Shown here: positions 12,195-52,982 of the stretch, one piece after another | Numbering within the stretch: position 1 is the first letter of the stretch | Layout: the number at the start of each line of letters is the position of its first letter | NCBI GenBank assembly: GCA_032123355.1 | Contig: JAQBFM010000215.1 | Location: 9,325 to 73,324 of the forward strand | Direction of reading: 5' to 3' | Length of the DNA: 64,000 nt | DNA from: Lentisphaerales bacterium | GTDB lineage: Bacteria; Verrucomicrobiota; Kiritimatiellia; SPBP01 | Program-made: the position numbers and the translations under genes | The notes under the pieces: generated by a model | Database searches by the model: none | What the model was told of the DNA's origin: nothing | The model's input: only the letters and a program-made list of their open reading frames with translations

Positions 12195-12271
12195 AGCGCC
12201 CGTGGCTCAATTGGATAGAGCACCTGACTTCGGATCAGGATGTTGCAGGTTCGAGTCCTGCCGGGCGCGCC
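12195..12271 (+). tRNA. tRNA-Arg (anticodon TCG)
   Basis: Cloverleaf folded by hand. The 7-bp acceptor stem is GCGCCCG/CGGGCGC and the D stem is GCTC/GAGC. The anticodon stem is CCTGA/TCAGG with loop CTTCGGA (U33, TCG at 34-36). The T stem is GCAGG/CCTGC with a TTCGAGT loop, and CCA is encoded. Confidence 0.85.
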
Positions 12272-12577
12272 ATTCGTAACGTAATCCAGGCGAACCTCTT
12301 GCGAACATGATACCTGGACTCTTCGCCATGAAAGTGCCACTCAACGCCGCATGACGGCAGTCCTTTTCTACAGTTTCTTCTACGGCACGTTGTTCAATGT
12401 TGCATCGGGTTGAACTACGTGCAAAGCGCCCCGCAGATGACATCGCCTCGACTGGACTGACAAAGGCAAGTTTTGGCTCGGAAGCGCACGGGGTAACGTT
12501 ATGATGACATCCGTTTCTCGGGGTTTGCCTCATGGCTTCCGCGGGCCATCCGAGCTTCTCTGTCATAAGAACTTGTC

Positions 12578-12604
12578 TTGACATGGCCGGAGTTATATTA
12601 TACT
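12578..12604 (+). promoter_or_regulatory. Candidate sigma70-like promoter for abiEi (TTGACA ... TATACT)
   Basis: TTGACA lies at 12578-12583 and a TA-rich -10-like TATACT at 12599-12604 (15-nt spacer), ~40 bp upstream of the abiEi start. Confidence 0.3.
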
Positions 12605-12643
12605 TTGCTTTAATGGTGTGTACGCCCATTGTCGGGGAATGTA

Positions 12644-13441
12644 ATGAACTCAAAGCAACAGAAGCTGGGGGATCTCGCAACACGCTTCTTCGCTTATGTC
12701 CAGCTCAAGCGGAAGGAAACAGTTGCCACCGGTGAACTGCAGGATCAACTGGCCATTTCGCCCGCCAAAGAGCGGGATCTGCTCCGCCGACTCGCACGTT
12801 CTGGCTGGATTGTCAGGCTTCGGCGGGGCCTCTATCTTGTTCCCTCCCGAATTCCGGCTGGACGATATAGTCCCGGTGTTTATCTGGCTCTTCAGAAACT
12901 TATGGAAGACTGCCGGGGCGCTTACCAGATATGTGGCCCCAGTGCTTTCAGCTATTATGGATTCAGCGAACAGATAACCAACACTACCTACGTCTACAAC
13001 AACCGAATCTCCGGAGAACGTGTTATCGGAAGTCTCCGGTATGTGTTGATCAAAGTTGCCGATACGCGATTGGGAGGAATCGACCTTTTCGCGACTCCAA
13101 ACGGAGCACAGGCTGTCTATTCGTCCGAGGCCAGAACCCTTGTGGATGCTGTATATGACTGGTCCCGATTCAATAGTCTGCCTCGTGGCTATGACTGGAT
13201 TCGAGACTTTGTGTCCGACCGAAAGAAAGTCCAAGGACTCGTTGACACGACGTTGAGCTTCGGCAATCAAGCCACGCTACGTCGCATTGGCTATCTTCTT
13301 CAGTCTTTGGAACTGCCGAGCCGAATAGTCAGGAGACTCAAGCCTGCCTTAAATCCATCCAAGGCACTGATACCCTTGTTCCCCAACAAACCACAACGTG
13401 GACGAGTGAATCGGGAATGGGGGCTGATCATCAATGACTGA
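12644..13441 (+). CDS. abiEi: Type IV TA system AbiEi-family antitoxin (wHTH transcriptional regulator)
   Basis: N-terminal wHTH: GELQDQLAISPAKERDLLRRLARSGWIVRLRRGLYLVP. A COG5340-like C-terminal domain follows. The stop overlaps the downstream toxin start by 8 nt. The alternative TTG start is at 12629. Confidence 0.8.
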   Translation: MNSKQQKLGDLATRFFAYVQLKRKETVATGELQDQLAISPAKERDLLRRLARSGWIVRLRRGLYLVPSRIPAGRYSPGVYLALQKLMEDCRGAYQICGPSAFSYYGFSEQITNTTYVYNNRISGERVIGSLRYVLIKVADTRLGGIDLFATPNGAQAVYSSEARTLVDAVYDWSRFNSLPRGYDWIRDFVSDRKKVQGLVDTTLSFGNQATLRRIGYLLQSLELPSRIVRRLKPALNPSKALIPLFPNKPQRGRVNREWGLIIND

Positions 13442-14321
13442 AAGAGAATTCGATATGAACAGTTTCCACAATGACCCTGATCTTTTCAGTGCCGCCCTGG
13501 CCGATACTGAAGCTGCATCAGGTTTCACCGCTCGTCTCATTGAGAAGGACTACTTCTGCTCACTCGTGCTGGGCCTCCTGTATAACAAGATTGACTTGCC
13601 TTTGGTCTTCAAGGGTGGAACGTGCCTGAGCAAGGTCTACACTGACTTCTATCGGCTCAGCGAGGATCTGGATTTCATCATACCGATGGAAACTGACTCC
13701 AAGCAGACAGCGCGGCATTCAAGAATCAAGCCGGTGAAGCAGCGCCTGCCACAACTGCGAGATGAGATTCCGTCACTGCAATTGGTCTCTCCCTTAAACG
13801 GGCACAATCAGTCCACTCACTACGCGGCACATCTCGCCTATCAATCTGCAGTCACCGGCCGGCAAGAGTCGATCAAGATCAAAATCGGGCTGCGCGAACC
13901 GTTGCTGCGAGCAGTGCAGTCTCGAGCGGCACACACTTTGATAGTCAGTGGACTCACTCGACGACCAGTCATTCCACCATTCGACGTTGTCGTAATGGAT
14001 ATCCAGGAAGCGTACGCTGAAAAATGCCGGGCTGCTCTAACGCGGAAGGAACCGGCAATTCGAGATATATTCGACATTGACCATGGAATGAAACAACTTG
14101 GCATTGACATGTTCAGCCCCGAGTTCATGAGCATGGTGAAAGAAAAACTTGCGATACCGGGCAATGACCAAATCGACACCGCTGCGAACCGAAAAGAAAT
14201 GCTCTTGAGGCAGCTCGACACGGAACTCAGGCCCGTTCTCAGGCGGAGCGATTTTGATCAGTTCGATCTCGAGACTGCATTCGAAGCCGTCTATCGACTC
14301 GCCCAGACAATTAGAAGCTGA
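13434..14321 (+). CDS. abiEii: AbiEii/AbiGii-family nucleotidyltransferase toxin (DUF1814)
   Basis: Hallmark motifs LVFKGGTCLSKVY ... SEDLDF. The gene is the right size (295 aa) and sits immediately downstream of abiEi with an overlap. Confidence 0.85.
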   Translation: MTEREFDMNSFHNDPDLFSAALADTEAASGFTARLIEKDYFCSLVLGLLYNKIDLPLVFKGGTCLSKVYTDFYRLSEDLDFIIPMETDSKQTARHSRIKPVKQRLPQLRDEIPSLQLVSPLNGHNQSTHYAAHLAYQSAVTGRQESIKIKIGLREPLLRAVQSRAAHTLIVSGLTRRPVIPPFDVVVMDIQEAYAEKCRAALTRKEPAIRDIFDIDHGMKQLGIDMFSPEFMSMVKEKLAIPGNDQIDTAANRKEMLLRQLDTELRPVLRRSDFDQFDLETAFEAVYRLAQTIRS

Positions 14322-14490
14322 AGTCATTGTGCTTGCTCACGAGGCAGGCGCGAAACTCCTGCTGATGGACAAAAAGAGCGGACGCAGCATAGCTGCTCAG
14401 GAGGGACTGAACGTGGTCGGGTTGGTGGGCGTTTTGGTCATGGCGAAGGAGAGCCGAACAATTGAATCCAGAGACTGTTTGTCGCTACCA
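14314..14490 (+). pseudogene. Remnant of a DUF3368 (PIN-like, UPF0175-partner) gene; C-terminal fragment only
   Basis: EAEVIVLAHEAGAKLLLMDKKSGRSIAAQEGLNVVGLVGVLVMAKESRTI matches the conserved C-terminal block of DUF3368 proteins. It has no N-terminal half and no start codon, and it overlaps the abiEii end in another frame. Confidence 0.45.
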
Positions 14491-14669
14491 CGCCAACGCC
14501 TTGCCTCAATGCCACTGAAGCCGGCTTTCTTTTCTACGGTTTCTTCTACGGCACGCTGCCCTCGTAGAAGAACGCTTTCTCCCAGGTGTCGGGCTGGGAA
14601 CCTGTGGGGTCAAATGGCTCGACCCAGCTTCCATCGGGGTGTTTCGGAGCAACAGGGCGGCGTCACTCT

Positions 14670-14790
14670 CATTGCTCCTCAAGTGCGTCGCCTTTCTGCG
14701 GTTCCTGAACTCGCTTTGCCTCGCGGGCAAGAAAGAGATGAGCCATGGCAATGCCGCGGTTACCACCGACCAGACACTTGCCGTGCTCGG
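14670..14790 (-). pseudogene. 3'-terminal fragment of a NUDIX hydrolase gene (duplicate of the 18633-19184 gene end)
   Basis: The minus-strand frame reads ...LVGGNRGIAMAHLFLAREAKRVQEPQKGDALEEQ*. The stretch from GGNRG is nucleotide-identical (98/99) to the corresponding segment of the intact NUDIX gene. Upstream similarity stops and an in-frame stop follows. Confidence 0.5.
14673..14771. repeat. Left copy of a ~99-bp direct repeat (DR; 86 bp exact + 12 bp with 1 mismatch)
   Basis: Identical to 18754-18852 apart from G14685 vs T18766. Confidence 0.85.
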
Positions 14791-14929
14791 TCACTGCAAG
14801 AGAAACTGGAACGTCCGGTGGCCATTTCCACAAATCTGGTGACGACAGGCTGGTATGTGCTAGGGTTCTTGCCCGTGGCCGTGCTCTGGCGTCGAGTCAG
14901 TCACAGGATCTCGCAGGCGAAGGAGTTTC

Positions 14930-16687
14930 ATGACGGTGCGAACTCAATATTCCGTGCGGATGCTCCTGCCCTATCTCCGCCGCTATCGCCGCGTGCTGCT
15001 CCTGGCCATCATCGGGACGGCAGCCTTTAATGCTTTGTCGCTTACACCACCACTGATCTTTCGACATTTAATCGATAGCGTGGTTGAACCCGGCAAATGG
15101 GATCGACTTGCTCTGGTGATTGCAATCTACCTGGCCGCTCCGCTGCTGGCCCAGGCGGTTCAGTTCGTCGTCGCTCAGGTCATCGTGTCAATTGCTCATC
15201 GGATGGTTGCAGATATTCGGATCGGGCTGTATCGCCTGCTCTTACGATTGAGCATGCGATTCCACGGCGAGACATCCACAGGAAGCCTGGTCACGCGGCT
15301 TATGGGCGATGTCGGCACGCTCCAACAGCTGGTGTCCGGCCAGACCATCCAGCTCGTGGGCGACTTAATGGTTTTTCTCTTTTCGGTATTCATCGCCTTC
15401 TCCATTCATCATGTGCTTGCCGCCATTCTAGTGGTAGTTGCCGTTCTGTACGCAGGAGCTTACCTCGTGTTCTCTCGCCATATTCGGGCGGCAACACATT
15501 CCATGCGGACGGTGAACGATCTGCTGGTGGGCCGGCTTCAGGAAACCTTACACGGCGTGCGCCATGTACGCATATACAGCCGTGAGATCGATGAACGGGA
15601 AACGTTTCTACAGCGGGCAACGCAGGGACTCGATCATGCCCTCTCCAGCGGCATGAGTTCCGTCGGGCTTGGAGCGACATGCACCGTGATTGCCGGGTAT
15701 GGGTCTACGGTCATCTACGCGCTCGCCGGCTACTACGTTCTGTGTGATGAAATGACGCTGGGCGATCTGCTCGCCCTGAATACGTACGTATGGATGGCCC
15801 TCAACCCCGCGCTACGGCTAGCCGCGTTTGCCGGCCAGTTTTCCGAGGTCCGTGTTTCGTTACAGCGCGTCCTTGAGCTTCTGGTTATGGAGCCAGACAT
15901 CAGTTCGAAGCCAGGGGCGCCGGATATGAGGTGTACGGAGGGTCGGGTCGAGTTCCGCGATATCGGGTTCCGCTACAAGGAGGATGAGCCCTTGTTCCAG
16001 GGTCTCACGCTGTCTGTGGAGCCCAATACAACCGTGGCACTGGTAGGGCATACCGGGTGCGGCAAAACGACGCTGACGGCTCTGCTCATGCGGCTATGGG
16101 ACGTGCGGGAGGGCCGGGTCCTTATCGATGGAACAGACGTACGGTCGGTAAGCCTGTCCAGTCTGCGGAACATTTTCGGAGTGGTACTGCAGGACCCGAT
16201 AGTCTTTGAGGGCACAATCGCCGAGAACATCGCCTATGGCAGGCCGGAGGCGTCACGACAAGAGATCGAAGATGCCGCCCGAACGGCCGAGGTAATCCAA
16301 TTCTCGGGACAATTGCCAAACGGACTTGACTCAATGTTGGGGACGTATGGCGTGAAGCTCTCCGTTGGACAGAAGCAGCGAGTCAGTATTGCACGGGCCA
16401 TTCTGCGAAATCCACCCATTCTCGTGATGGATGAAGCCACAAGCGCCCTCGACAGTGAGGCCGAGGCCGCGATTCAACGAGCGGTGGCGCGCGTATTGAA
16501 AGGGCGCACGAGTTTCGTGGTAGCCCACCGGCTCTCAACAATCGTTGGCGCGGATCTCATCGTGGTCATGGACCATGGTAGCATTGTCGAGAAGGGCACG
16601 CATGAGGAACTGATGCAGATCCCCGGAGGCCTGTACCACAGATTGTACAAGGAGTTGCAGCGTGCTGGCAGGGAGGGGGCATCATGA
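14930..16687 (+). CDS. ABC exporter subunit, fused TMD-NBD (MsbA/ABCB-like), half of a heterodimer
   Basis: Six TM helices are followed by Walker A (GHTGCGKTT), the ABC signature (LSVGQKQR) and Walker B (ILVMDEATSALD). AGGAG RBS at 14921-14925. Confidence 0.85.
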   Translation: MTVRTQYSVRMLLPYLRRYRRVLLLAIIGTAAFNALSLTPPLIFRHLIDSVVEPGKWDRLALVIAIYLAAPLLAQAVQFVVAQVIVSIAHRMVADIRIGLYRLLLRLSMRFHGETSTGSLVTRLMGDVGTLQQLVSGQTIQLVGDLMVFLFSVFIAFSIHHVLAAILVVVAVLYAGAYLVFSRHIRAATHSMRTVNDLLVGRLQETLHGVRHVRIYSREIDERETFLQRATQGLDHALSSGMSSVGLGATCTVIAGYGSTVIYALAGYYVLCDEMTLGDLLALNTYVWMALNPALRLAAFAGQFSEVRVSLQRVLELLVMEPDISSKPGAPDMRCTEGRVEFRDIGFRYKEDEPLFQGLTLSVEPNTTVALVGHTGCGKTTLTALLMRLWDVREGRVLIDGTDVRSVSLSSLRNIFGVVLQDPIVFEGTIAENIAYGRPEASRQEIEDAARTAEVIQFSGQLPNGLDSMLGTYGVKLSVGQKQRVSIARAILRNPPILVMDEATSALDSEAEAAIQRAVARVLKGRTSFVVAHRLSTIVGADLIVVMDHGSIVEKGTHEELMQIPGGLYHRLYKELQRAGREGAS

Positions 16688-18549
16688 CGACGTCCTCACA
16701 CCGCCGCCGGCGACTCCATCGTATTATCAAGGAGTCACAATCTGATGCGCAGGAACAGACTGGTGTCCAGGCAGGAGACCTGCAACGCCTCTGGCGTGTA
16801 TACCTGACAACTCACCGATGGGCTGTAGCCGGCATGCTGGCGGCACTCGTGGTCTGGGCATCCGTCCCGTACTTTTTCGCCCTGACCCATCGGTACATGA
16901 TCGATGGAATCCTGGTCCCGGGAGCGGGTGCGATGATCGGTGATCACAGCGCTCTGCTACCAAAGTTCCTCCTTGGGCTCGGGTTGGTGTTCGGCGCGAA
17001 TATGCTGCTGCACACCGTCAACCTCGTCTGTAACTGGACTGTATCATCCTCTACGTTGAAGATTGGCCGGGACGTCGCGCTGCGATTGCGCGATCAGCTT
17101 TATCTGAAGTTGAACACCCTGCACCTGGGCTACTATGACCGTACCCAGTCGGGGCGTGTCGTAGCCCGTGTACAGGCGGATGTCGGCCAGATCCAGAATA
17201 CCGTAACGGGACACCTGGCGTCGCTCCTTATTGAACCAATCAAGCTGACGGTCGGATTTGCTGTCCTTTTCTGGCTCGATTGGCGACTTGCGCGCATCCT
17301 TGCCGTGGCAGCACCGCTGTATGCCGGAATCTTTATTCTGCTGCGTCCCCGAATTCGAGTAAACGGCATGGCACAAAGCCGGCTCAACTCGCGGCTGTAC
17401 GGACTGACAGCTGAGCGACTCGAGGCAATCCAGGTCGTAAAGGCCTTCGGGAAGGAACGGGGGGAGCTTGGAGTATTCAGTCGTGCCGTCCATAACGGGG
17501 TCCGTCTTGCACAACGCCACGCCTTGTACAATCAGGGCCTTTCCTTTGCAGCAAGTGCTCTGAGCGCCGTAGCGGTCACTGGCATTCTGCTACACGGTCT
17601 ACTGTCGGTGCGTGACGGCCTGCACGGCATGACCTTGGGATCTGTTGTTGCCTTTGTCCATCTCGCGCAGCAGGTCTTTCAGCCGATTCAAACGCTCACG
17701 GCTATGGGAGCCGTAGTGCAGACGACCATGGTCTCGCTCCGTCGCATCTTCACGCTTCTGGATGAGCCGTGCCCCACGATGTCCGGTGGGATTACCCTTG
17801 CCGGCATGGCGGGTAAGATCCGGCTCGAACACGTAACATTCAGCTATCCCTCACAAAGCCGGCCAGCGTTGCGTGACTTGTCCTTGGAGGTCCGCGCGGG
17901 TGATCATGTGGCGATCATGGGCCCGTCTGGAAGCGGGAAGAGCACGCTGTTTAACATGCTTCTTCGTTTCTATGAACCCCAGCAAGGGAGGATCTTCGTT
18001 GGCGGAGTTGACATCACGGACGCAGATGTAGCCTCTCTGCGTCGCCATGTGCGCTATGTCCAACAAGAGCCTTTCATCTTCTCGGGCACCATTGCGGATA
18101 GTATCCGTTACGGGTGTCCTGACGCAACGGACTCACAGATTGCTGCAGTCGCGGGACTTGCCGAGATGCAGGAGTTTATCTCCGGTCTGCCCGAACGTTA
18201 TGACACCGTGATCGGCGAGAGCGGCATTGGACTTTCTGGCGGCCAGCGCCAACGGCTTGCTCTGGCAACAGCCCTGTTGACGGACCCGGAAATTCTGCTT
18301 CTCGACGACGCTACAAGCGCGTTGGACGCCGAGACCGAGGCGCGCATCCGGAAAACGCTACGCAGCGTCATGGCCGGACGCACAAGTCTAATCATCACCC
18401 AGCGCATCTCCACAGCAAGGAATTGCGACCATATCATTGTTTTGGAGGAGGGCGGCGTCACTCAGTCGGGCACGCATGATGAGCTGACCTCGGCAGATGG
18501 ATTCTACCGGCGTATCTGCAAACAACAGGATGTCGATAGTCATGCCTGA
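16684..18549 (+). CDS. ABC exporter subunit, fused TMD-NBD, second half of the heterodimer
   Basis: The ATGA overlap with the upstream gene implies coupling. Walker A GPSGSGKST, signature LSGGQRQR, Walker B LLLDDATSALD. Confidence 0.85.
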   Translation: MTTSSHRRRRLHRIIKESQSDAQEQTGVQAGDLQRLWRVYLTTHRWAVAGMLAALVVWASVPYFFALTHRYMIDGILVPGAGAMIGDHSALLPKFLLGLGLVFGANMLLHTVNLVCNWTVSSSTLKIGRDVALRLRDQLYLKLNTLHLGYYDRTQSGRVVARVQADVGQIQNTVTGHLASLLIEPIKLTVGFAVLFWLDWRLARILAVAAPLYAGIFILLRPRIRVNGMAQSRLNSRLYGLTAERLEAIQVVKAFGKERGELGVFSRAVHNGVRLAQRHALYNQGLSFAASALSAVAVTGILLHGLLSVRDGLHGMTLGSVVAFVHLAQQVFQPIQTLTAMGAVVQTTMVSLRRIFTLLDEPCPTMSGGITLAGMAGKIRLEHVTFSYPSQSRPALRDLSLEVRAGDHVAIMGPSGSGKSTLFNMLLRFYEPQQGRIFVGGVDITDADVASLRRHVRYVQQEPFIFSGTIADSIRYGCPDATDSQIAAVAGLAEMQEFISGLPERYDTVIGESGIGLSGGQRQRLALATALLTDPEILLLDDATSALDAETEARIRKTLRSVMAGRTSLIITQRISTARNCDHIIVLEEGGVTQSGTHDELTSADGFYRRICKQQDVDSHA

Positions 18550-18632
18550 TGCGATAGTCAAAACGGTCGCGCGGGTGACGGGTCCACCGCAGATAGAGTC
18601 ATCGGGACGCAAATCCAGCTCAGTTTGCCCAG

Positions 18633-19184
18633 TCAGGATCCTGGCCGCAGTTGTCTGAGTGCAAGTGACACAAGTGCTGCCCATGCCAGCACCTTGAACT
18701 CACCATTGGTCAGCGCCGTTTCGAGTTCCTGCAGGCTGAGCTGGACCTCTTCCTGCTCCTCAAGTTCGTCGCCTTTCTGCGGTTCCTGAACTCGCTTTGC
18801 CTCGCGGGCAAGAAAGAGATGAGCCATGGCAATGCCGCGGTTACCACCGACCCGGTAGCTGCCAAGCTTGACCCAGTCCGGCGCTTCATATCCCGTTTCT
18901 TCTAGAAGCTCCCGCTTTGCCGTTGCAACCGGCTCCTCGCCCGGTTCCAGGTACCCGCCGACCGGCGCCAGCACAATGCCCTCGACCCCGTACTTAGGCT
19001 GACGAAAGACCAGAGCTGTGCCGTCGGTTGTAATCGGCAGGATATTGACAAAGTCCGGCGTGATAATCCATGGCCAATCGGAAATGACCCGACCGTCCGG
19101 CAGTTGAACTGCGTGTTCCTCGACAGTAAGGAACTTGCTGTGCTCCAGCACGGTCCGGCGCGAAAGTGTCTTCCATATCTGCAT
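18633..19184 (-). CDS. NUDIX hydrolase (ADP-ribose pyrophosphatase-like)
   Basis: Nudix box GGYLEPGEEPVATAKRELLEETG. Confidence 0.8.
   Translation of the reverse strand: MQIWKTLSRRTVLEHSKFLTVEEHAVQLPDGRVISDWPWIITPDFVNILPITTDGTALVFRQPKYGVEGIVLAPVGGYLEPGEEPVATAKRELLEETGYEAPDWVKLGSYRVGGNRGIAMAHLFLAREAKRVQEPQKGDELEEQEEVQLSLQELETALTNGEFKVLAWAALVSLALRQLRPGS
18754..18852. repeat. Right copy of the ~99-bp direct repeat (DR), inside the NUDIX CDS
   Basis: See 14673-14771. Confidence 0.85.
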
Positions 19185-19436
19185 CTCTGTCTCCTACCAG
19201 CATCCTGTCGGACTTCCCGCCAGAGGCGGGTCTGCCTTCGGCATGATCCGCTTCTCTGCAGATCCGCCATGCTGCTGGATAATCCCGATTTCATCGGGAT
19301 CTGAAGGATTATGAGTTGGAGCGTATTGGAAATCAAGATATCGCGAGCAACGGGGCATCATTCTTATCACCGGCATGAACATAACGCCTGAGCGTTGCTG
19401 GCAGCTACCAGGCAACGTTCCACAAAATCAGCGATC

Positions 19437-19507
19437 AGTTTTGCGAAGCAACACTCACTAGAAGCGTGAGGACTTTGCGTTCAACGCAAAGTCCTCACGC
19501 TTCTAGT
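19437..19507. repeat. REP-like double-hairpin element R1 (copy a)
   Basis: A short palindrome GTTTTGCGAAGCAA(C)AC precedes a perfect 23-bp stem (19457-19479 / 19485-19507) with loop TTCAA. Homologous copies lie at ~44210-44290 (inverted, degenerate) and 45311-45383. Confidence 0.7.
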
Positions 19508-19691
19508 GGTCGTTGAGTACTTCTATCATCGCGGCGACGTTTTCCGACTTGCCGGTGAAGCTGACCTCGTACGGGATCTTGTCGGGCCGCTTGTGGCGCA
19601 GGCTGGTTATTACGCGCTCTTTGTTTGTCATAACTGTTCTCCCGGATAGTATTCCCTGCTCATTCCCTACACCCTCCCTCGCCACTTGCCA

Positions 19692-22600
19692 CTATTCCTT
19701 GCGCAGTGCATTCAACAGATTGCCACGCAGCGCAAAACGAACGGCGATCCAGGTCAATAGCAGCCCGATCAACAGAATTCCTGCAAGAATTGCGGTGAGC
19801 AGGCCGATGGGTGCCTTGACCGCAGGTGACAGAAATGCCGGCACCATCGCAACACCTGCCGCGATGGTTCCAGTCATTACCCCGACAACAAGAAGAGTTC
19901 CGTGTTCTCGGAGGACCATGGTCTCAAGTGCCGATCTGCTGAAACCCAGAGCCCTGAGAAGCGCGAACTCGCTTCTGCGCTCAAGTACGTTGCGCAGCAC
20001 GGCTATGCCTACCCCGAGACTTCCGACAATCAGGCCAAGCCCGCCAAGTGCCAGGAACATGGCCAGGTATGTGCTCTCAATAGAGTAAAACTCCTGCAGC
20101 CGTTCAGTGGTGCCGGAAACCATCAGCCCGAACATATCCAGTCCTGACGTCAACGCCGCCTTGACTGGCTCCTGCCCGCCTTCTGGAACATCGACAAGGA
20201 ACAGACGGTATCCGCTTTCCGATGGATATAGTTTTGTGAATGCTTCTTCTGAAACAAGCAGTGCGCCCTGGAACACGGAGAGCTTCATGGGTAGTGTCCC
20301 GACAAGCCGCACCTTGAATTCCGTTCCGCGTTCATCCGTGTAAACCAACGTGTCTCCGTTCTCCGGTCCGGTCTTGGCCTCGAGTCCCCACATCGCCGTG
20401 TTAACATCTCCGGCAAGAGCCGGAACAGAACCATCATCCGTATCCTGTTCGAGCAAGGCCCAGATATCCGGGCCGCGCTCGGCCACGAATGCACGTCTCG
20501 CGGAAAGATCAGCCGGGTTCACGGCCACCAGCCGGGGAGTGCGTGCGCGATTCAAGTTGAAACAACTTGCGTCATCGCCATCGTGAATCCGGCATGCTAC
20601 GAATTCAACGCCCTCCAGTCGCGCATCAGGTCTCAGTCCGAACCTGCTGAACCCGTCCTTTTCAACGGACTCATACATAAGGGGCAGTGAAGCCTCGGCA
20701 TACAGTTCGAACCCGCCCGTTCCAGACCAGCGTTCGCCTGCATTCAACGTCATGTCTTCCTTCATGGAGGAAACGCCGAAAACAAGAAAACATCCGCACG
20801 CGAGCGAGCCGACCACCGTCAGACTGCGCGACGGCCGCCGGGCTATGTTCCGAATGCCCAGCCCGGCCGCAGCAAGGTGTGCCGGGTCCGGTTCAATACG
20901 ACCCAATCGGTTTATGAACCACTGAACGAGGCAGATGCCGGCAATTAACAGCAGCGAACCAGCCGCGAAGAACGGCATAACGGGTTGCTCCCTGCCGGCC
21001 CCTATAGTGGCGGCCAGTATTCCGATAACCCCTGCGAATGCCAGAATACCGAGCCATCCACTGATACGAGACCGGCGCGTCGACAACCTTGCCACGGGCC
21101 CGCCGAAGTTCGAGGCCAGCAGCTCCCGAATGTTGTCACGCATGTGGCCGAGAACGGCAAACCCCATCGCGATCAGTGCACACACAAATGCCGCGATCGC
21201 ACCAATCGCCGCCGTCCTGGGTTCGGCATAATAGTGCACCGCTGAGCCCGCCACCGCGCCCTGCCAGTACCGACCCAGCATCCAGATCATGCCGCGACCA
21301 TACAATACGCCGAGCGGAACACCGGCAAGGACTCCCGCGCCGGCAACGAGTCCACCCTCCAGCAGCAACAGGGCGTAGACACGCGCACGCCTGTAACCGA
21401 CAGCAAGCAGGAGCCCGATCTGCTCGGCCCTCTGCTGCACCCCGAACACGAACAGCATACCGGTCAGCAACAGAGCCGAGATAATCAGGAAGAAGCTCAT
21501 CCCCAGAAAAAGCTCGCCGAGATTCATCGACTCAGAAACAGCACGCACGGCATCTTCTCTGACCGCCCCGAAAACGAGCCCGAGCCGGGCCGGATCTACT
21601 TCGTCACTAAGCATCCCGTCCACGTCATCCCGGCTGTCTTTCCCCGCTTCGAACCGAACTCCTGTCAGTTCACCGAACCTGTTCGCCCACATCTCACGAC
21701 CAGCGTTCAACGTGACAAATGCTTTCGGCGTCTGCCGATATCGATTCCAGTACTCCTCGTTAGGCTTGTCGGCAAGTTTGTCCTCATCCATCGGCATCCC
21801 GATATCCCAATCCCTGCATGACTCAACGTTGGATAGCCCCGGAAACTCCGGCATAAGATCCTGTTCGGTCGCCAGCAGATCCATCGGAACAATGCCGCGA
21901 ACAGTGAATCTGCTGGATCGCTCAATGAACTCATTTGAGGCTGAGAACTCGTAGTAGGCAACAGTCAGGATGTCGCCCGGCTCTGCCGCAAGCTGGTCGG
22001 CAAGCCAACGGTTGACGATAATCTCATCGTCATTCATGTCGGCCGGAATCATGCTGAGTCCCTGCTCCCTGCCCGGCGCACAGGCGACCGCAAACGAATA
22101 AGGCGTGGTTCTTGCGTTCTGGCCTTCGCCTTTCGAGATCGAGTTCACCAGGTAGGTCAGCGTGCCGACTGTGCCGGTTCGGCTTAATGCGACAGATGCC
22201 ACGGCGGGATCAAGAAATATCCTGTCGCTCTCGAGCTGCAGGACAAGCCCGTCCTTCGATTCGCGCAGGCTCAGTCCGGCATCTGTCGGGCGCCATGCTT
22301 CACGCAATACCCCAGCAAGACTTTCGGAGGAGAAGGCCTGTCCTTCGGTCCGCCCCACCAGTAGAATGTTTGAACGCCCGTCGAGCTCAGCGCTCCGCTG
22401 AAGCCGCGAACGTCGCACGAACGCGTTGTAGGGCGCAACCTGGCTCGCCGACAGACTGAACCGGCCAAGTTCTGAATCGGGCACGATGTATTCGACAACC
22501 AGGCTGATTCGCCTTGAAAATGCGTCCTTCCGCGACGAGAGCGGCGCGTCCGCGGGAACAATACCCGGCTTCCCCACACGAAGCGACAGGTCATCGCCAA

Positions 22601-23735: not shown

Positions 23736-24887
23736 TCAGTCTTCCTTTTCGGCGGGCCCGAATGCAACAATGAACCCGTCATCGGTGCCGACAGCCATCA
23801 TGCCGTCGGCAAGAGCCGGGGATGTTATCTCGTCTGAGATCGGCTGCTCCCAGATCTTTTCGCCGTTCGTAAGCCTCAGAAGCACAAGCCTGCCGCCGGT
23901 AGAAACGGCGACCTTATCGCCGGCGATAGTCGGCGAAGAACAACCTGGTTCGTTCGACTTGTAGGTCCATCGCGTTTTGCCGGTCCCTCGTTCTATGCCG
24001 TAAACATCTGCTGCCGCCGCCACGATCAATTCTTTTGAGACGGCGGGGGTTGTAAACATTTCCTCCTTGCCATCGATGTTCTGCCAGATGATCCGGCCGG
24101 TATCAATATCCGCGCAGACCAGTGCACCGCTCCTGGATCCGACCCAGCAAAGGTTACCGTCAAGCGCAGCGCCCGCCGCAACCTGGCTGTTCTCTCCAAG
24201 TTCAACCGCCACCAGTTGCTTTCCGGAATCGGCCGCCAGCACGTGCAATGCCGAAACACAGCTTCCGAAAACGATCTTTGCGGCGCCAACCGACGGGTAT
24301 GTATCCGCCCGACCAATCCCTTCGGATTTCCACTTCAGTTCGCCGGTCACCTGGTTAACGCAGTGGATGACCCCGTCGGGCTGTGTCAGGACGATGATGG
24401 CCGACTCTTTCTCTTCGCCGATCACCAGCTGGTTCGGCGTTCCCCATATCGGCTGGCCCGTATCGTATTCCCAGCCCGGCTCACCGGTGCGCAGGTTGAA
24501 GGAATGGAGTCGGCCGCGCATGGAACCTGCTACGAGTTTATCCCCGGAAACCAGTGGAGACGCCTTTAACGAATCGTTCGTTTCCGAAAAGCTCTTGCGC
24601 CAGACGACCTCGCCCTTCCTGTCCAGGACGCCAACCATGCCATCAGAGGTCGTGAAGCAGACGAACCCACCGGAGATGACCGGTGCGGAGTCCACGGATT
24701 CCCCTACTCTCGTCTTCCATAACTGTACCGGCTTATCCGGCAGTTCGACATCGAGTATTCCAGTCAGCCCGCTGTTCCCGTGAAATGTTGTCCATCCTGC
24801 ATCATCTGCCGCGCCCGACCCGGACCATACCGCGACAGCAAGCAGTACCATGCAGTTGAAGAGCCTCGTTTGCGCTCGCGTCCTCAT
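23736..24887 (-). CDS. Secreted PQQ-like beta-propeller repeat protein (BamB-like fold)
   Basis: Signal peptide MRTRAQTRLFNCMVLLAVAVWSGSGAA followed by repeated ~40-aa blades with G..VW motifs. The start is uncertain (the ORF extends to 24968). Confidence 0.7.
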   Translation of the reverse strand: MRTRAQTRLFNCMVLLAVAVWSGSGAADDAGWTTFHGNSGLTGILDVELPDKPVQLWKTRVGESVDSAPVISGGFVCFTTSDGMVGVLDRKGEVVWRKSFSETNDSLKASPLVSGDKLVAGSMRGRLHSFNLRTGEPGWEYDTGQPIWGTPNQLVIGEEKESAIIVLTQPDGVIHCVNQVTGELKWKSEGIGRADTYPSVGAAKIVFGSCVSALHVLAADSGKQLVAVELGENSQVAAGAALDGNLCWVGSRSGALVCADIDTGRIIWQNIDGKEEMFTTPAVSKELIVAAAADVYGIERGTGKTRWTYKSNEPGCSSPTIAGDKVAVSTGGRLVLLRLTNGEKIWEQPISDEITSPALADGMMAVGTDDGFIVAFGPAEKED

Positions 24888-24949
24888 GCCAACCAGTTTG
24901 CCAGAAAGCCGGTGCTTCGACAAGAACCTCTGCTGACATTCTGGGGGGA

Positions 24950-25195
24950 CTGCAGGACCACGGGACAACGGGACTACGAACCACGGATGAACACGGATGC
25001 GAACTGCAAGTGTGGGCCACGAATCGGCAGAAACCCACGCCCCGTCCCGTCAGGCCAGAGACCCCTCCCGACGGGCCGCTTCCCTATTCTGTTTCCTTTG
25101 TGGCTTTTGTGCCTCTTTGTGGCTATCGACAGTATCGGCGTCTATCTGCGTTCATCGGCGGTCGCTTTCGAATGTCTCGGGCGGGCAGCTCCGCA
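24950..25195. repeat. Mosaic intergenic repeat region (modules M7, M6)
   Basis: GGACTACGAACCACGGATGAACACGGAT occurs here and, inverted, at 29548-29585. GTGCCTCTTTGTGGCTATC...ATCGGCGTCTATC.GCGTTCATCGGCGG also occurs at 38950-39010 and partly at 29650-29700. Confidence 0.7.
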
Positions 25196-32163: not shown

Positions 32164-32423
32164 CAATCGTCCTCGTCCTCGTCCTCAGTGAGCGTAGCGA
32201 ACGGTCCTCGTCCTCGATTTTTCACTGGTCACGTTTCCCGCCAGGAGCAGGTCCTGGTGGGTGAAGGCGCTGGGGAACGTTGCGACCGCGCCGGGCTCGG
32301 CATTGCCCGACGTAACCATGAACGAAGCGAAGGCGAAGTCGGGACGGCCCGCCGCACCCGAACTGCCGAGGACGAGGACCGTTCGTCACGCTTCGCGTTC
32401 CTCACTGAGGACGAGGACGATTC
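32164..32423. repeat. MITE-like element with ~55-bp terminal inverted repeats (TIRs; module M1)
   Basis: The left arm CAATCGTCCTCGTCCTCGTCCTCAGTGAGCGTAGCGAACGGTCCTCGTCCTCG is the reverse complement of the right arm CGAGGACGAGGACCGTTCGTCACGCTTCGCGTTCCTCACTGAGGACGAGGACGATTC. The ~150-bp core contains an M2-like segment. Confidence 0.7.
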
Positions 32424-35436: not shown

Positions 35437-36735
35437 ATGAAAGTGATGAAAAGCGTATTCGGAAGATTCAGTTGCATGGTGCTGGCCACCGTGTTGGTTG
35501 CCCTGACCTGCGGTGCCGCAGAGGTGGTAAAAGTTTCCCCGCTCATCGCGGCATGCGAGCGCGGCAGCATGAAGCAACTGAAGAAACTGGTGGCGGAAGG
35601 TGTGGACGTCAATGTCTCAACGGATGCCAAAGGCCGGACTGCCCTGATGATCGTGGCCGACAAGGGAAACTCTTCTCTCGTCACTTACCTTCTTGCTAAC
35701 GGCGCAACCCTGGAAACTGTCGACGCCCGCGGCAACACTGCGCTCACACTCGCAAGCTCGAAGGGCCATAAAAGAGTGGTCACTTTGCTGCTCGACGCGA
35801 GGGCCAATCCCAATCTCGCCAGCGGCAAAAGTGCGACCCCACTCATGGCGGCAAGTATGGGCGGACACACTGCCGTCGTGAAAGAGCTTCTTGCTACGAG
35901 GGCGGAACCCGACGCTGCCAACGCATACGGCGGCACTGCGCTCATGGTTGCGAGCGAGAGCGGACACGGGGCAGTGGTGAAAGAGCTTCTCATCGCAAGG
36001 GCGGATCCGAATCTTGCCAACAAGGGAGGATGGACTTCACTGATACTGGCAAGCATGAAGGGCCACAGCAAAGTCGTGAAGCTTCTGCTCAAAGAGAGGG
36101 TGAACCCCGATGCCGCCGCAGAAAACGGCAGCACCGCGCTGATGGTCGCAAGCGAGAACGGCCACGCCGACACGGTCAAGCTGCTGCTCGCCGCGAAAGC
36201 TGATCCCAACCTGGTCAACAAGGGCGGTGCGACCGCGCTCACCGTCGCAAGCGTGAATGGCCACAGCAAAGTGATCAAGCTGCTGCTCGCCGCGAAAGCT
36301 GATCCGGATGTCGTCATGAACGGCGGGGTGACCTCACTGATATTCCTGAGCCAGCGCGGCAATACGGAAGCGGTCCAGGCACTCCTGAAAGTCGGGGTCA
36401 ATCCCAACATAACCGACAATCGCGGCATGACCGCGCTCATACCTGCAAGTCGGAACGGCCATACCTCGGTGGTGAAACTGCTGCTCGCCGCCCGGGCCGA
36501 CCCGAACATCGCCAACGTGGACGGGGTGACCGCACTAATGGCCGCAAGCGATAATGGCCGGACTGATGTGGTCAAGCTGATCCTCGCCGCCAGGGCTAAC
36601 CTGAATCCAGTCAGCAAGGCCGGGCTTAACGCGCTCGGCTATGCCAGGCTGAACGGACACGAGGGCGTCGTCAAAACGCTGCTTGCTTACGAAGCAAAGA
36701 AGCTGCGCGCGAGCCAGAAACGCGTGCGGAGGTAG
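35437..36735 (+). CDS. Secreted ankyrin-repeat protein (~12 ANK repeats)
   Basis: A signal peptide is followed by 12 tandem 33-aa repeats of the form G.TALM.AS..GH..VVK.LL.A.A.PN. Confidence 0.8.
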   Translation: MKVMKSVFGRFSCMVLATVLVALTCGAAEVVKVSPLIAACERGSMKQLKKLVAEGVDVNVSTDAKGRTALMIVADKGNSSLVTYLLANGATLETVDARGNTALTLASSKGHKRVVTLLLDARANPNLASGKSATPLMAASMGGHTAVVKELLATRAEPDAANAYGGTALMVASESGHGAVVKELLIARADPNLANKGGWTSLILASMKGHSKVVKLLLKERVNPDAAAENGSTALMVASENGHADTVKLLLAAKADPNLVNKGGATALTVASVNGHSKVIKLLLAAKADPDVVMNGGVTSLIFLSQRGNTEAVQALLKVGVNPNITDNRGMTALIPASRNGHTSVVKLLLAARADPNIANVDGVTALMAASDNGRTDVVKLILAARANLNPVSKAGLNALGYARLNGHEGVVKTLLAYEAKKLRASQKRVRR

Positions 36736-37325
36736 AAGAAGGTTTCAGGTGTCAGGTTTCAGGAAACTGCCAGTGTGTGGGAGTATGGGAGTGTCGGAGT
36801 GCCAGGGGTGTGACCAGAAATCCTAATCGTCCTCGCCTGCCCGACGAAGCCACGCAGGGCGAAGTCGGGTCCTCAGTGAGGAACGCGAAGCGTGACGAAC
36901 GGTCCTCGCGTGCCAGGCCGTAGTCCCCACCTCGAAGAGAGTCGGGGCGAAGTCGAATCCTCCAACCGAGAAGCCATAACATCGAATGAAGAACCGAGGA
37001 CGAGGACCGTTCGCTCCGCTCACTGAGGACGAGGACGATTGAGGCCTGCGGGAACGGGACGCGGAATCTGGAGCTTGGATGCTCCTTGTGTCACTCCAAT
37101 TCCCAATCCTGAACCCTGAACACTGAACTCTGGCAGTTCCACTGCCCCCCGAAACCTGACACCGACAAAGTTCGCGACAAGGCTCGCGACAAAGTCTCCA
37201 TTCATCCATCAACCTTCATTCCCCATTCGTGTCCATTCGTGTGATTCGTGGGCAGAAGTTCTTCTTCGCGTCCATCAGCCTTCAACCTTATTCCTGACAC
37301 CTGAACACTGGCCGCCTCTGGTGGC
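36736..37325. repeat. Composite palindromic mosaic element (modules M4rc-M3rc-M1rc/M2 ... M1 ... M4)
   Basis: GGTTTCAGGTGTCAGG and GGGAGTATGGGAGTGTCGGAGTG sit on the left. GAGGACGAGGACCGTTCG...CACTGAGGACGAGGACGATT and CTGAACCCTGAACACTGAACTCTG sit on the right. Confidence 0.65.
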
Positions 37326-38859: not shown

Positions 38860-39130
38860 CGGAAACCGGAGGTTCTCCGCTTATCCATATCCGTGTCCAT
38901 CCGCGGTTCAACAAATCATTTCTCTGTGTCTCTGCGCGAGAATCTCTGCTTGTGCCTCTTTGTGGCTATCAAGATCGGCGTTCATCGGCGTCTATCGGCG
39001 GTTGCATTTCGGTTCACTCCCCCCACACTCCGACACTCCCATACTTCCACACACAATCAGTTCCCTGACGAAGTCCCTGAGCTTGTCGAACGGGCGATCT
39101 CTGCTCCCCTGCGCCTCCGCGGGAGGCATC
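38860..39130. repeat. Mosaic intergenic repeat region (M4rc, M7-like, M6, M3)
   Basis: CACACTCCGACACTCCCATACTTCCACACACAATCAGTTCCCTGAC (M3) also occurs at 42195-42250 and, inverted, at 36768-36806. Confidence 0.65.
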
Positions 39131-39982: not shown

Positions 39983-40204
39983 CAAGGAATATCCAAGTTT
40001 CAAGGTTAACACATGAATCGTAATCGTCCTCGCCTGCACGACGAAGCCACGAAGGGCGAAGTCGGGTCCTCAAATAGGGTGTGAAACAGAAATCAAGACG
40101 TCACGAGCTACGGCCGGAAAGGAGAGTGCGGTTCCCTTGGTCATTGGATTTGGGTGTTGGATATTGGATATTCGTTTTCGTTCTTTCATAGAATTCTTGA
40201 CACT
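39983..40204. repeat. MITE-like element Y (TIRs GGAATATCCAA / TTGGATATTGG) carrying nested M1/M2 modules
   Basis: The ends match 52783-52920 (~90% identity over ~30 bp on the left and ~75 bp on the right). The internal segment differs and here contains AATCGTCCTCGCC...CGACGAAGCCACGAAGGGCGAAGTCGGGTCCTCA. Confidence 0.7.
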
Positions 40205-40230
40205 ACCATTCTTCCCCCAGAACCCGGCGG

Positions 40231-42039: not shown

Positions 42040-42290
42040 CTCGCACACGTAAATTTCTCAATCTTCATCCGTCATCCTTCCGCCTTAAGATTGGCGCGTA
42101 TTAGTATGGATGTCATGTTGTGATTTCCGTTTGACACCTTAGTTCGAGGACGAGGACCGTTCGCGCCGCTCACTGAGGACAAGGACGATTTCTCGTCACA
42201 CCCCCACACTCCGATACTCCCATACTCCCACACGCAATCAGTTCCCTGACACCTGAACACTGAACTCTGAACACTCCCCACACACGTCAG
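42040..42290. repeat. Mosaic intergenic repeat region (M1-M3-M4 arm)
   Basis: CGAGGACGAGGACCGTTCGCGCCGCTCACTGAGGACAAGGACGATTTC, M3 and CCTGACACCTGAACACTGAACTCTGAAC. Confidence 0.65.
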
Positions 42291-44213: not shown

Positions 44214-44290
44214 CAGTGCGTCGGACTTAGCCCCTCCTTCGTCGGAGCAAAGTCCTGGCCCTGCTAGTTAGTTTTGCTTCGCAAAACTGA
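44210..44290. repeat. REP-like element R1 (copy b, inverted, degenerate)
   Basis: CTGCTAGTTAGTTTTGCTTCGCAAAACTGAT is the reverse complement of the R1c head. The hairpin is imperfect and sits immediately after the peptidase stop. Confidence 0.55.
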
Positions 44291-44588
44291 TGCGGAAGAT
44301 CGGGGATCCGCTTGACCCGGACTTGATCTGGCGGGGCCTTATCCTACCGGAATTGCCAACAGGTTACGTTCATTCGCTAGGAGTCTGTCGGACTTTCGCC
44401 ATGCGAAAGTCCTCCATACTCCTCCTGAGTTTTGTAAGTGTTTGCACAATAAGCTCTTGCAGAACCAACCAAGAAAGTTCCGGAAAATCCGAGGTCTGGT
44501 TTCTTCTATATATAGTAGGGATGGAGTCTGCGGGGGTGGGCCTTGCATCCATTCGAACGACGAGGGGACGGCCGTATCGAGGCTTATT

Positions 44589-45245: not shown

Positions 45246-45310
45246 GACATTTCCAGCATTACGCGCCGGTGCCAAGGCAGTTGCCGAAGGAACGATCGAA
45301 AAAATGAAGA

Positions 45311-45383
45311 ATCAGTTTTGCGAAGCAAAACTATCTAGCAGCGTTAAGACTTTGCGTTAGACTCAAAGTCTCAACGCTGCTAG
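45311..45383. repeat. REP-like element R1 (copy c)
   Basis: ATCAGTTTTGCGAAGCAAAACTAT is followed by a ~19-bp stem CTAGCAGCGTTAAGACTTT / AAAGTCTCAACGCTGCTAG. Confidence 0.65.
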
Positions 45384-45904
45384 TGCTGATGCAACTTGCG
45401 ATGTTCTTCGGCATGCCTGGCCGATGGGGTATGCGAGGGCGCGGTTGACTGCGCGGAGGCCCATGCAATGGTCTGCTGGAGAATCTCCCAGCGGTGCCGG
45501 GAATTCCAGTGTCGCTCCCGCTTCTGCTCTTCCCGCACCTTGAGTTCGTCCAATGTCATGTCAGTCGCCCTGTACTGCTTTGCGAAGCCCATCCAGTCGA
45601 AACCTGCGTTGGCCCGACTTCTCCAGGGCTTCCTCCGCTCTCAGCATATCCTCATCCGAAAGACCAAGATATTCGACGTCCGAGGCCGTCTTTCCCCTGT
45701 ACGCTCTGGCCCGACATTCGTTCCAGTCACCCAGCCCCTTAACCCTCCTGAAGACATCAATTGCTCCCAAATCGCTGGTCAAGCAGAACACGGTTTGTTT
45801 CGCCAACCACCTCGGTTGTCGCTGCGCAACCGGTCCCCACTCGTGGTCGGATTCGCCCCATTCCGCGCCAAGCCCATAGTCGCAACCGGTTATCAACGCC
45901 TGCT

Positions 45905-52782: not shown

Positions 52783-52920
52783 CAAGGAATGTCCAGGTTT
52801 CAAGGTTAGTTCCCCGCCTGACAGCGCGGCCGGGAAGCAGAATGCAGTCTCCTTGGTCATTGGATTTGAGTGTTGGATATTGGATATTCGCTCTCATTCT
52901 TTCATAGAACTTTTGACACT
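52783..52920. repeat. MITE-like element Y (short copy)
   Basis: CAAGGAATGTCCAGGTTTCAAGGTTA ... CCTTGGTCATTGGATTTGAGTGTTGGATATTGGATATTCGCTCTCATTCTTTCATAGAACTTTTGACACT. Homologous to 39983-40204. Confidence 0.7.
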
Positions 52921-52982
52921 GCCGACAAGAGTGGGCTGAAGGACGGAAGGAGGTTTGGGGCCGGTTTCCCCATCGATCATGC

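Follow-up and report, generated by a model that had tools for sequence, protein, structure and literature searches.

How did a 99-bp piece of a NUDIX hydrolase gene come to lie a second time, in the same orientation, on the far side of a neighboring exporter operon? The question is raised by a 64,000-nucleotide stretch of DNA from a Lentisphaerales bacterium (GenBank assembly GCA_032123355.1, contig JAQBFM010000215.1, positions 9,325 to 73,324 of the forward strand; hereafter the window), in which a near-perfect direct repeat brackets two half-transporter genes of the ATP-binding cassette (ABC) type, ABC1 and ABC2. An initial annotation of the window took the two copies for attL/attR-like ends of a decayed element, naming a RecA substrate or a larger island starting at tRNA-Arg as further options. 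The island mechanism bracketed by the repeat does not survive the analysis described here, the RecA option remains viable, and the tRNA-Arg island is borne out in part. The simplest history makes the left copy the scar of illegitimate recombination, via tandem duplication followed by deletion, a reading to which we assign a probability of roughly 0.55.

A direct repeat fixed in the population

The left copy occupies 14673–14771 and the right copy 18754–18852, at an offset of 4,081 bp. The two agree at 98 of 99 bases, comprising, as initially annotated, an exact core of 86 bp (14686–14771 and 18767–18852) and a single mismatch farther out, which on the + strand is G at 14685 in the left copy and T at 18766 in the right. 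Background identity for this spacing is 5.1 matches per 20 bp on average, which excludes a chance origin. No other near-identical repeat of the window involves coding sequence; the remaining repeats are short dispersed elements of 79–96% identity or tandem repeats inside genes.

Both copies read as NUDIX on the − strand. The right copy lies within an intact gene (18633–19184, − strand) for a 183-residue, ADP-ribose pyrophosphatase-like NUDIX hydrolase (Pfam NUDIX, E=1.1e-13), where it was first described as the 3′ end. It corresponds instead to codons 112–144, with the Nudix box upstream of it and 121 bp of native coding sequence, 39 codons plus the stop, following at 18633–18753. The left copy is an orphan internal fragment equivalent to the same codons. 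It encodes VGGNRGIAMAHLFLAREAKRVQEPQKGDALEEQ and then stops at a TGA located directly after it (14669–14671). The initial annotation was right about this stop and wrong in calling the peptides the same, as they differ at one residue (GDALEEQ* vs GDELEEQ...). Its observation that NUDIX similarity ends abruptly beyond the left copy can be extended, with similarity lost on both sides.

Comparison with other assemblies establishes a genuine repeat that the population has fixed. Contigs were gathered by exact-protein look-ups for NUDIX, AbiEii (a toxin gene product encoded to the left of the repeat), and ABC1 from six NCBI metagenome-assembled genomes (MAGs), four JGI metagenomes, and several Logan run assemblies, all 99.7–99.97% identical to the window. 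Thirteen contigs from other assemblies of the Lentisphaerales population share the arrangement. Seven distinct ones, from the NCBI MAGs and JGI metagenomes, cover both copies plus the unique 4 kb between them, three further contigs cover the left copy alone, and three the right copy alone, with the flanks of the window present in all. Across these contigs the left copy always carries G and the right copy always T. The initial annotation had allowed that the left copy might be an artefact, a collapsed or misjoined repeat, and the repeat is indeed longer than common assembler k-mer sizes. With the same structure recovered in 13 contigs, seven of them running through the whole unit and six covering one copy with the expected flanks, and with distinct alleles kept by the two copies everywhere, such an error is barely credible. 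A search of the JGI metagenome_contigs collection with an exact 42-mer of the repeat gave 0 matches, indicating that the population is not in that collection. The shorter ABC2 product in JGI contigs (571 vs 621 residues) reflects a difference in gene calling only and no mutation.

A native right copy and a derived left copy

The only moderately close relative, represented by contigs L090–L094, has ~82% nucleotide identity to the window, and its NUDIX protein is 89% identical. Gene order matches through ThuA, methyltransferase, ABC-ATPase, FtsX, a URO-D remnant, and NUDIX, and homology ends exactly at the NUDIX stop codon. Beyond it the relative has ~10 kb of different genes, starting with activase and dehydratase genes and containing no ABC exporter. 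Identity of the NUDIX gene to its ortholog in L090 is 85.2% in the 5′ part, 85.9% in the repeat, and 83.5% in the tail. This even divergence, together with homology up to the stop codon, argues that the right copy and the tail that follows it were inherited vertically. The mismatch points the same way. In the NUDIX sense, the right copy and the relative share A, and the left copy has C, which makes the left copy the derived one. The right copy, sitting in its native context, is accordingly the original.

These results bear directly on the proposal that the repeats are the attL and attR sites of a decayed integrative island, which would have entered the NUDIX gene site-specifically with the exporter as cargo and supplied a replacement 3′ end. 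Several features speak for such an island: a discrete cassette is bracketed by direct repeats (14772–18753), the nearest relative has no ABC cassette after NUDIX, homologs of the ABC pair occur in varied contexts elsewhere, and integrative elements are active in the population at the nearby tRNA-Arg. Islands and prophages that restore a gene's 3′ end through an integrase likewise have direct repeats around their cargo, one of them in a gene, and the tRNA resembles their integration hotspots. The supposedly supplied tail is, however, the ortholog of the relative's tail, diverged to the same degree as the gene's other parts, and beyond the left copy, where the immediate stop is followed by unrelated sequence, a displaced NUDIX 3′ end is missing. 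The derived base at the mismatch is carried by the left copy. The annotation had reported no visible integrase, and this is confirmed: Pfam results for the ORFs of the locus, and for every called gene of the strain contigs from purL to a PQQ-like gene at 23736–24968, contain no integrase, transposase, resolvase, or reverse transcriptase, nor any excisionase, and six-frame reading of 14300–14935 and 18540–18760 reveals no recombinase remnant.

Two checks that the annotation had proposed were also carried out. The exporter genes have GC contents of 0.577–0.580, third-position GC of 0.64–0.66, and codon-usage distances of 0.065–0.100, all inside the spread of values for 25 other genes of the window, such that the supposed cargo is compositionally native. 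No empty-site allele exists in any of the 13 strain contigs, and the relative has entirely different sequence downstream and not an empty site. NUDIX relatives in 80 GTDB genomes (55–68% identity, mostly Chloroflexota) have no conserved neighborhood with the ABC pair and are thus of no use in locating one. The attL/attR reading therefore fails on three defining tests, recombinase, element-supplied gene end, and distinct cargo composition, and an integrase-mediated origin of the repeat is highly unlikely.

A side observation concerns ancestry. Outside its own lineage (100% and 89% identity), the best homologs of the NUDIX protein reach 69% identity and come mainly from Chloroflexota (Anaerolineae, Caldilineae) and not from the Planctomycetes-Verrucomicrobia-Chlamydiae (PVC) group; the best named homolog of ABC1 (69%) likewise belongs to a Chloroflexota family. 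This pattern may reflect either an old transfer or database sampling.

Origin of the left copy

The favored duplication-deletion history takes its main support from geometry. The NUDIX fragment lies upstream of ABC1, in NUDIX orientation, and ends at 14771|14772, the point at which a tandemly repeated unit would restart; its position, orientation, and end thus fit a tandem-duplication joint. The duplicated unit would measure 4,081 bp (14772–18852) and run from the ABC upstream region through ABC1, ABC2, and an 83-bp spacer to the NUDIX tail and the repeat. In a first step, tandem duplication of this unit would have created a new joint between NUDIX position 18852 and 14772. A later deletion, extending from the left flank into the first copy, would then have removed nearly all of that copy along with some of the flank. 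The survivor would be the last 99 bp of the first copy, now beside a toxin-antitoxin patchwork downstream of tRNA-Arg. This order, duplication and then deletion, is deduced from the present arrangement.

The sequence at the joint offers a modest addition. In the 20 bp past 14771|14772, 10 of 20 positions match at the repeat offset, a level reached by 0.8% of background positions; the other edge of the left copy gives 7 of 20 and no signal. The former value may be a weak sign of a crossover guided by microhomology. Further scars are found nearby, namely the URO-D remnant, an insertion of ~310 bp upstream of NUDIX, and a 30-bp direct repeat around the AbiE genes. In the standard model, duplications arise via non-homologous joints with microhomology and are later expanded or lost through RecA (PMC11721125). 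The locus resembles the duplication remnants and amplifiable units covered there in several respects: a discrete unit with efflux genes lies between same-orientation repeats, the gene at one end of the unit recurs in truncated form as the repeat at the other, microhomology at the joint is patchy, and the stretch of exact homology would suffice for RecA to expand or remove the unit. It differs in retaining only a 99-bp vestige of the first copy. In clinical amplifiable units, moreover, the flanking homologies are usually insertion sequence elements or rrn operons of ~1 kb or more.

A number of points weigh against the duplication-deletion history. Neither an intact two-copy intermediate nor a pre-duplication state was found in any genome, and the relative has entirely different genes after NUDIX, which leaves the earlier adjacency of the ABC genes and NUDIX a presumption. 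Microhomology gives a modest signal (~1% by the background test), at one boundary only. The stop codon immediately after the fragment could be a coincidence or a hint of something else. Finally, a single-step templated insertion of 99 bp would yield an identical sequence.

This last route, in which 99 bp of NUDIX were copied into the joint between the ABC block and the patchwork on the tRNA-Arg side and no full tandem duplication ever existed, might operate during break repair or through homology-facilitated illegitimate recombination after DNA uptake. The abrupt edges on both sides of the left copy are as expected of a patch, and to its left lies a mosaic of unrelated fragments, none of which matches a family. 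The absence of 12273–18632 from the relative's orthologous loci implies a region built by several joins. A random template switch, on the other hand, need not produce direct orientation and an end that exactly fits a duplication joint, and templated insertions of ~99 bp are, to our knowledge, poorly documented in bacteria. The nucleotide sequence by itself does not separate the two histories; with these considerations taken together, the one-step patch appears unlikely.

A different kind of explanation would make the two copies a functional pair, either the template and variable repeats of a diversity-generating retroelement or a trans-antisense RNA, with the left copy in the ABC leader acting against NUDIX mRNA. 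Retroelement pairs likewise have a repeat of ~100 bp in the 3′ part of a gene and its non-coding counterpart close by, as here, where the gene copy lies in the 3′ third. For the antisense variant, the left copy is suitably placed 158–257 bp upstream of ABC1 on the strand antisense to NUDIX. No reverse transcriptase (RVT) family is present in the Pfam results, however, and the copies differ by one mismatch only, with A in the gene copy and C in the non-coding copy, the reverse of the pattern left by adenine mutagenesis; a retroelement pair was rejected on these grounds. An RNA or promoter function was likewise discarded, as the left-copy region has no Rfam match and no sigma-70-like promoter lies upstream of it, the latter being weak evidence given that PVC promoters may differ. 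The strains are too similar to reveal conservation beyond clonality. The probability of a functional pair is negligible.

The left copy also makes a poor gene. JGI calls a 54-residue open reading frame (ORF) here, which has no match in a family search and no Shine-Dalgarno-like sequence before its only in-frame start-like codons. All of this suggests a dead 99-bp fragment with no function of its own. The sequence to its left (14322–14672) is a non-coding patchwork that lacks any family match and contains the right arm of the 30-bp direct repeat (14529–14558). A guess that 14322–14470 is a PIN/DUF3368 remnant found no support in Pfam, even at E<=1.

Potential for RecA-mediated amplification

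Whatever its origin, the structure has a mechanistic consequence. With 86 bp of exact direct homology on both sides of the exporter, unequal exchange by RecA could duplicate, amplify, or delete the cassette. In model bacteria, RecA can recombine homologies shorter than this core. The annotation's fallback of a segment capable of RecA-mediated excision or amplification is therefore viable as a property of the repeat, and as an ongoing process it is represented by one ambiguous junction contig. A more ambitious proposal, compatible with a scar origin and adding present-day function and dynamics to it, holds that the repeats are now used for tandem amplification or circular excision of the exporter in natural populations. 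Amplification of efflux genes is documented, including that of the heterodimeric ABC exporter patAB (PMC11721125).

The junction contig, L100 (Logan run ERR5010617, 949 bp), reads NUDIX tail, repeat, ABC upstream region, and ABC1, with the right-copy allele in the repeat. This order is the one predicted for a head-to-tail or circle junction; the 80-residue cluster member P0242 comes from the same contig. The junction is ambiguous, as a k=31 graph, which we take to be the basis of the Logan assemblies, cannot tell it from a mis-path. All junction k-mers are also present in the normal genome when k < 86, and four other Logan contigs end at 14715, 30 bases past the mismatch, showing that these assemblies break or branch at the repeat in the manner of a k=31 graph. 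The first bases of L100 are Illumina adapter sequence, a sign of very low coverage, at which a wrong path through the repeat is likely. One hybrid junction stands against 20 observations of parental junctions.

The reciprocal deletion product would truncate NUDIX to 146 residues. No such allele is found among 14 contigs with exact AbiEii, among 16 with exact ABC1, or in the NUDIX 90% cluster, which contains no 146-residue member, and the contigs include 0 junctions joining the left flank through the repeat to the NUDIX 5′ part. The deletion allele may be counter-selected, since it truncates NUDIX. Current use of the repeats as an active cassette is, on balance, a tentative and rather unlikely possibility. 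The same holds for a genuine L100, which would mean that the wild population amplifies its 4,081-bp exporter unit, or excises it as a circle, via RecA acting between the 99-bp repeats. Were that so, the population would be heterogeneous in copy number for a heterodimeric ABC exporter, which would be the environmental equivalent of heteroresistance and the amplification of efflux genes.

The exporter between the repeats

The half-transporter pair that the initial annotation placed at 14930–18549 is upheld by Pfam as two + strand genes, ABC1 (14930–16687, 585 residues) and ABC2 (16684–18549, 621 residues), with the stop of the first overlapping the start of the second (ATGA). Each encodes an ABC_membrane domain followed by an ABC_tran domain (E-values of 1e-29 to 1e-33), that is, a transmembrane domain fused to a nucleotide-binding domain. 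The motifs are asymmetric. ABC1 has the non-canonical signature LSVGQ and retains the catalytic Glu (DEATS), and ABC2 has the canonical LSGGQ with Asp in place of the catalytic Glu (LDDATS). The pairing of LDDATS in ABC2 with LSVGQ in ABC1, and of DEATS in ABC1 with LSGGQ in ABC2, is the pattern of a heterodimeric exporter with one degenerate ATP site, as judged from the motifs. In their translational coupling, their Asp substitution in one half, and the non-canonical signature in the partner, the two halves resemble exporters of the PatAB, LmrCD, BmrCD, and TM287/288 type. Homologs of the pair occur in varied contexts elsewhere. In three contigs with ABC1 homologs of 76–80% identity (L095, L096, and L098), alignment is restricted to the coding sequence and the neighbors differ, so that the borders of the unit are not definable from them.

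An apparently lineage-specific zone next to tRNA-Arg

Gene order leading to the cassette is purL, thiE, a bifunctional nuclease, a B12/radical-SAM gene, tRNA-Arg(TCG), and AbiEi/AbiEii, followed by ~350 bp without a family match, the left copy, 158 bp, ABC1, ABC2, and 83 bp. NUDIX lies beyond on the opposite strand, and then a large FtsX-type permease with its ATPase. The relative's radical-SAM contigs are homologous up to the last base of tRNA-Arg (12196–12272, + strand) and all stop within ~50 bp after it. Nothing corresponding to 12273–18632 is found at the relative's two orthologous loci, and with homology ending at 12272 on one side and at the NUDIX stop codon on the other, the whole of this stretch appears to be lineage-specific.

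The tRNA is itself an integration site. Four MAG contigs have different sequence to the left of 12226 and keep only the 3′ 47 nucleotides of the tRNA (12226–12272), the segments concerned being 16960–17793 in L003, 7346–7941 in L005, 7339–7675 in L006, and 1–307 in L110. This comparison indicates an element integrated at tRNA-Arg(TCG) in some strains and thus apparently polymorphic. A 172-residue ORF at its end matches no PHROG or Pfam family; this ORF has a 69%-identical relative on IMG/VR contig UViG_3300025316_001103, which makes a prophage the probable identity of the element. The proposal that a larger island begins at tRNA-Arg thereby gains an apparently lineage-specific stretch and a live integration site, and lacks a far end: a decayed copy of the tRNA 3′ end was sought as its marker, and none exists between 12273 and 19700. 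The data support a variable island zone adjoining tRNA-Arg, with the NUDIX repeat unsupported as its att site.

Within this zone, 12629–14321 (+ strand) encodes an AbiEi/AbiEii toxin-antitoxin (abortive infection) pair, identified by Pfam (AbiEi_4, AbiEii) and PADLOC (8e-31 and 3e-29). The AbiEi antitoxin gene precedes that for the AbiEii nucleotidyltransferase with an 8-bp overlap, the layout of AbiE type IV toxin-antitoxin systems, and the pair has the lowest GC content among the genes of the window (0.515–0.523). It is enclosed, with ~200 bp of unassigned sequence, by the 30-bp direct repeat (12363–12392 and 14529–14558, 28 of 30 bases matching), which may mark the borders of a second module or be another recombination scar.

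Other differences from the relative and other repeats

Differences from the relative continue to the right of the NUDIX gene. The upstream region of NUDIX (19185–19700) contains ~310 extra bp in comparison with the relative, whose URO-D remnant ends 10 bp before the NUDIX start. In the window this remnant is internally deleted, with an N-terminal part, MTNKERVITSLRHKRPDKIPYEVSFTGK, joined to a C-terminal part, ENVAAMIEVLNDH. The PQQ-like beta-propeller gene (23736–24968), situated between the ABC ATPase and PUA-methyltransferase genes, is absent from the relative, where L090 joins 2404 to 2523; by this alignment it would be another lineage-specific insertion or deletion amid conserved synteny.

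A hairpin element of ~95 bp, with 33-nucleotide arms that are 91% complementary, is present at 19414–19515, 45291–45385, and 44247–44291 in copies of 79–89% identity. It looks like a dispersed repeat of the repetitive extragenic palindromic (REP) type or of the miniature inverted-repeat transposable element (MITE) type. The center of the copy beside NUDIX (19467–19480) varies among strain assemblies. Short families of 45–97 bp are dispersed in direct and inverted orientation, pairing 36819–36875 with 40016–40072 and 40111–40207 with 52827–52923; others join 39020–39069 to 42201–42250 and connect 36995–37040, 42145–42190, and 32173–32224. One of these repeats (36825–36874 and 40022–40074) is also present in the 82%-identical relative (L090, 13281–13334, 93–94% identity) and is thus conserved across lineages. 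An ORF at 35437–36735 holds six copies of a 99-nucleotide (33-codon) repeat at 35737–36627 and encodes a repeat-domain protein.

Implications

The NUDIX-fragment repeat is real, fixed, and open to an ordinary explanation, and it raises no long-standing question. Its value lies partly in caution. Where one copy of a long, near-perfect direct repeat lies inside a gene, the repeat resembles an att pair and can nevertheless be, as is probable here, the scar of a duplication and a deletion. Simple tests separate the two: divergence of the gene tail from its ortholog, polarity of the mismatch, a search for recombinases, and composition. For the organism, the structure leaves an exporter operon primed to be amplified or lost through homology. 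Should read-level data bear out the junction seen in L100, the locus would be a natural example of efflux copy-number plasticity in an uncultured bacterium of the PVC group.

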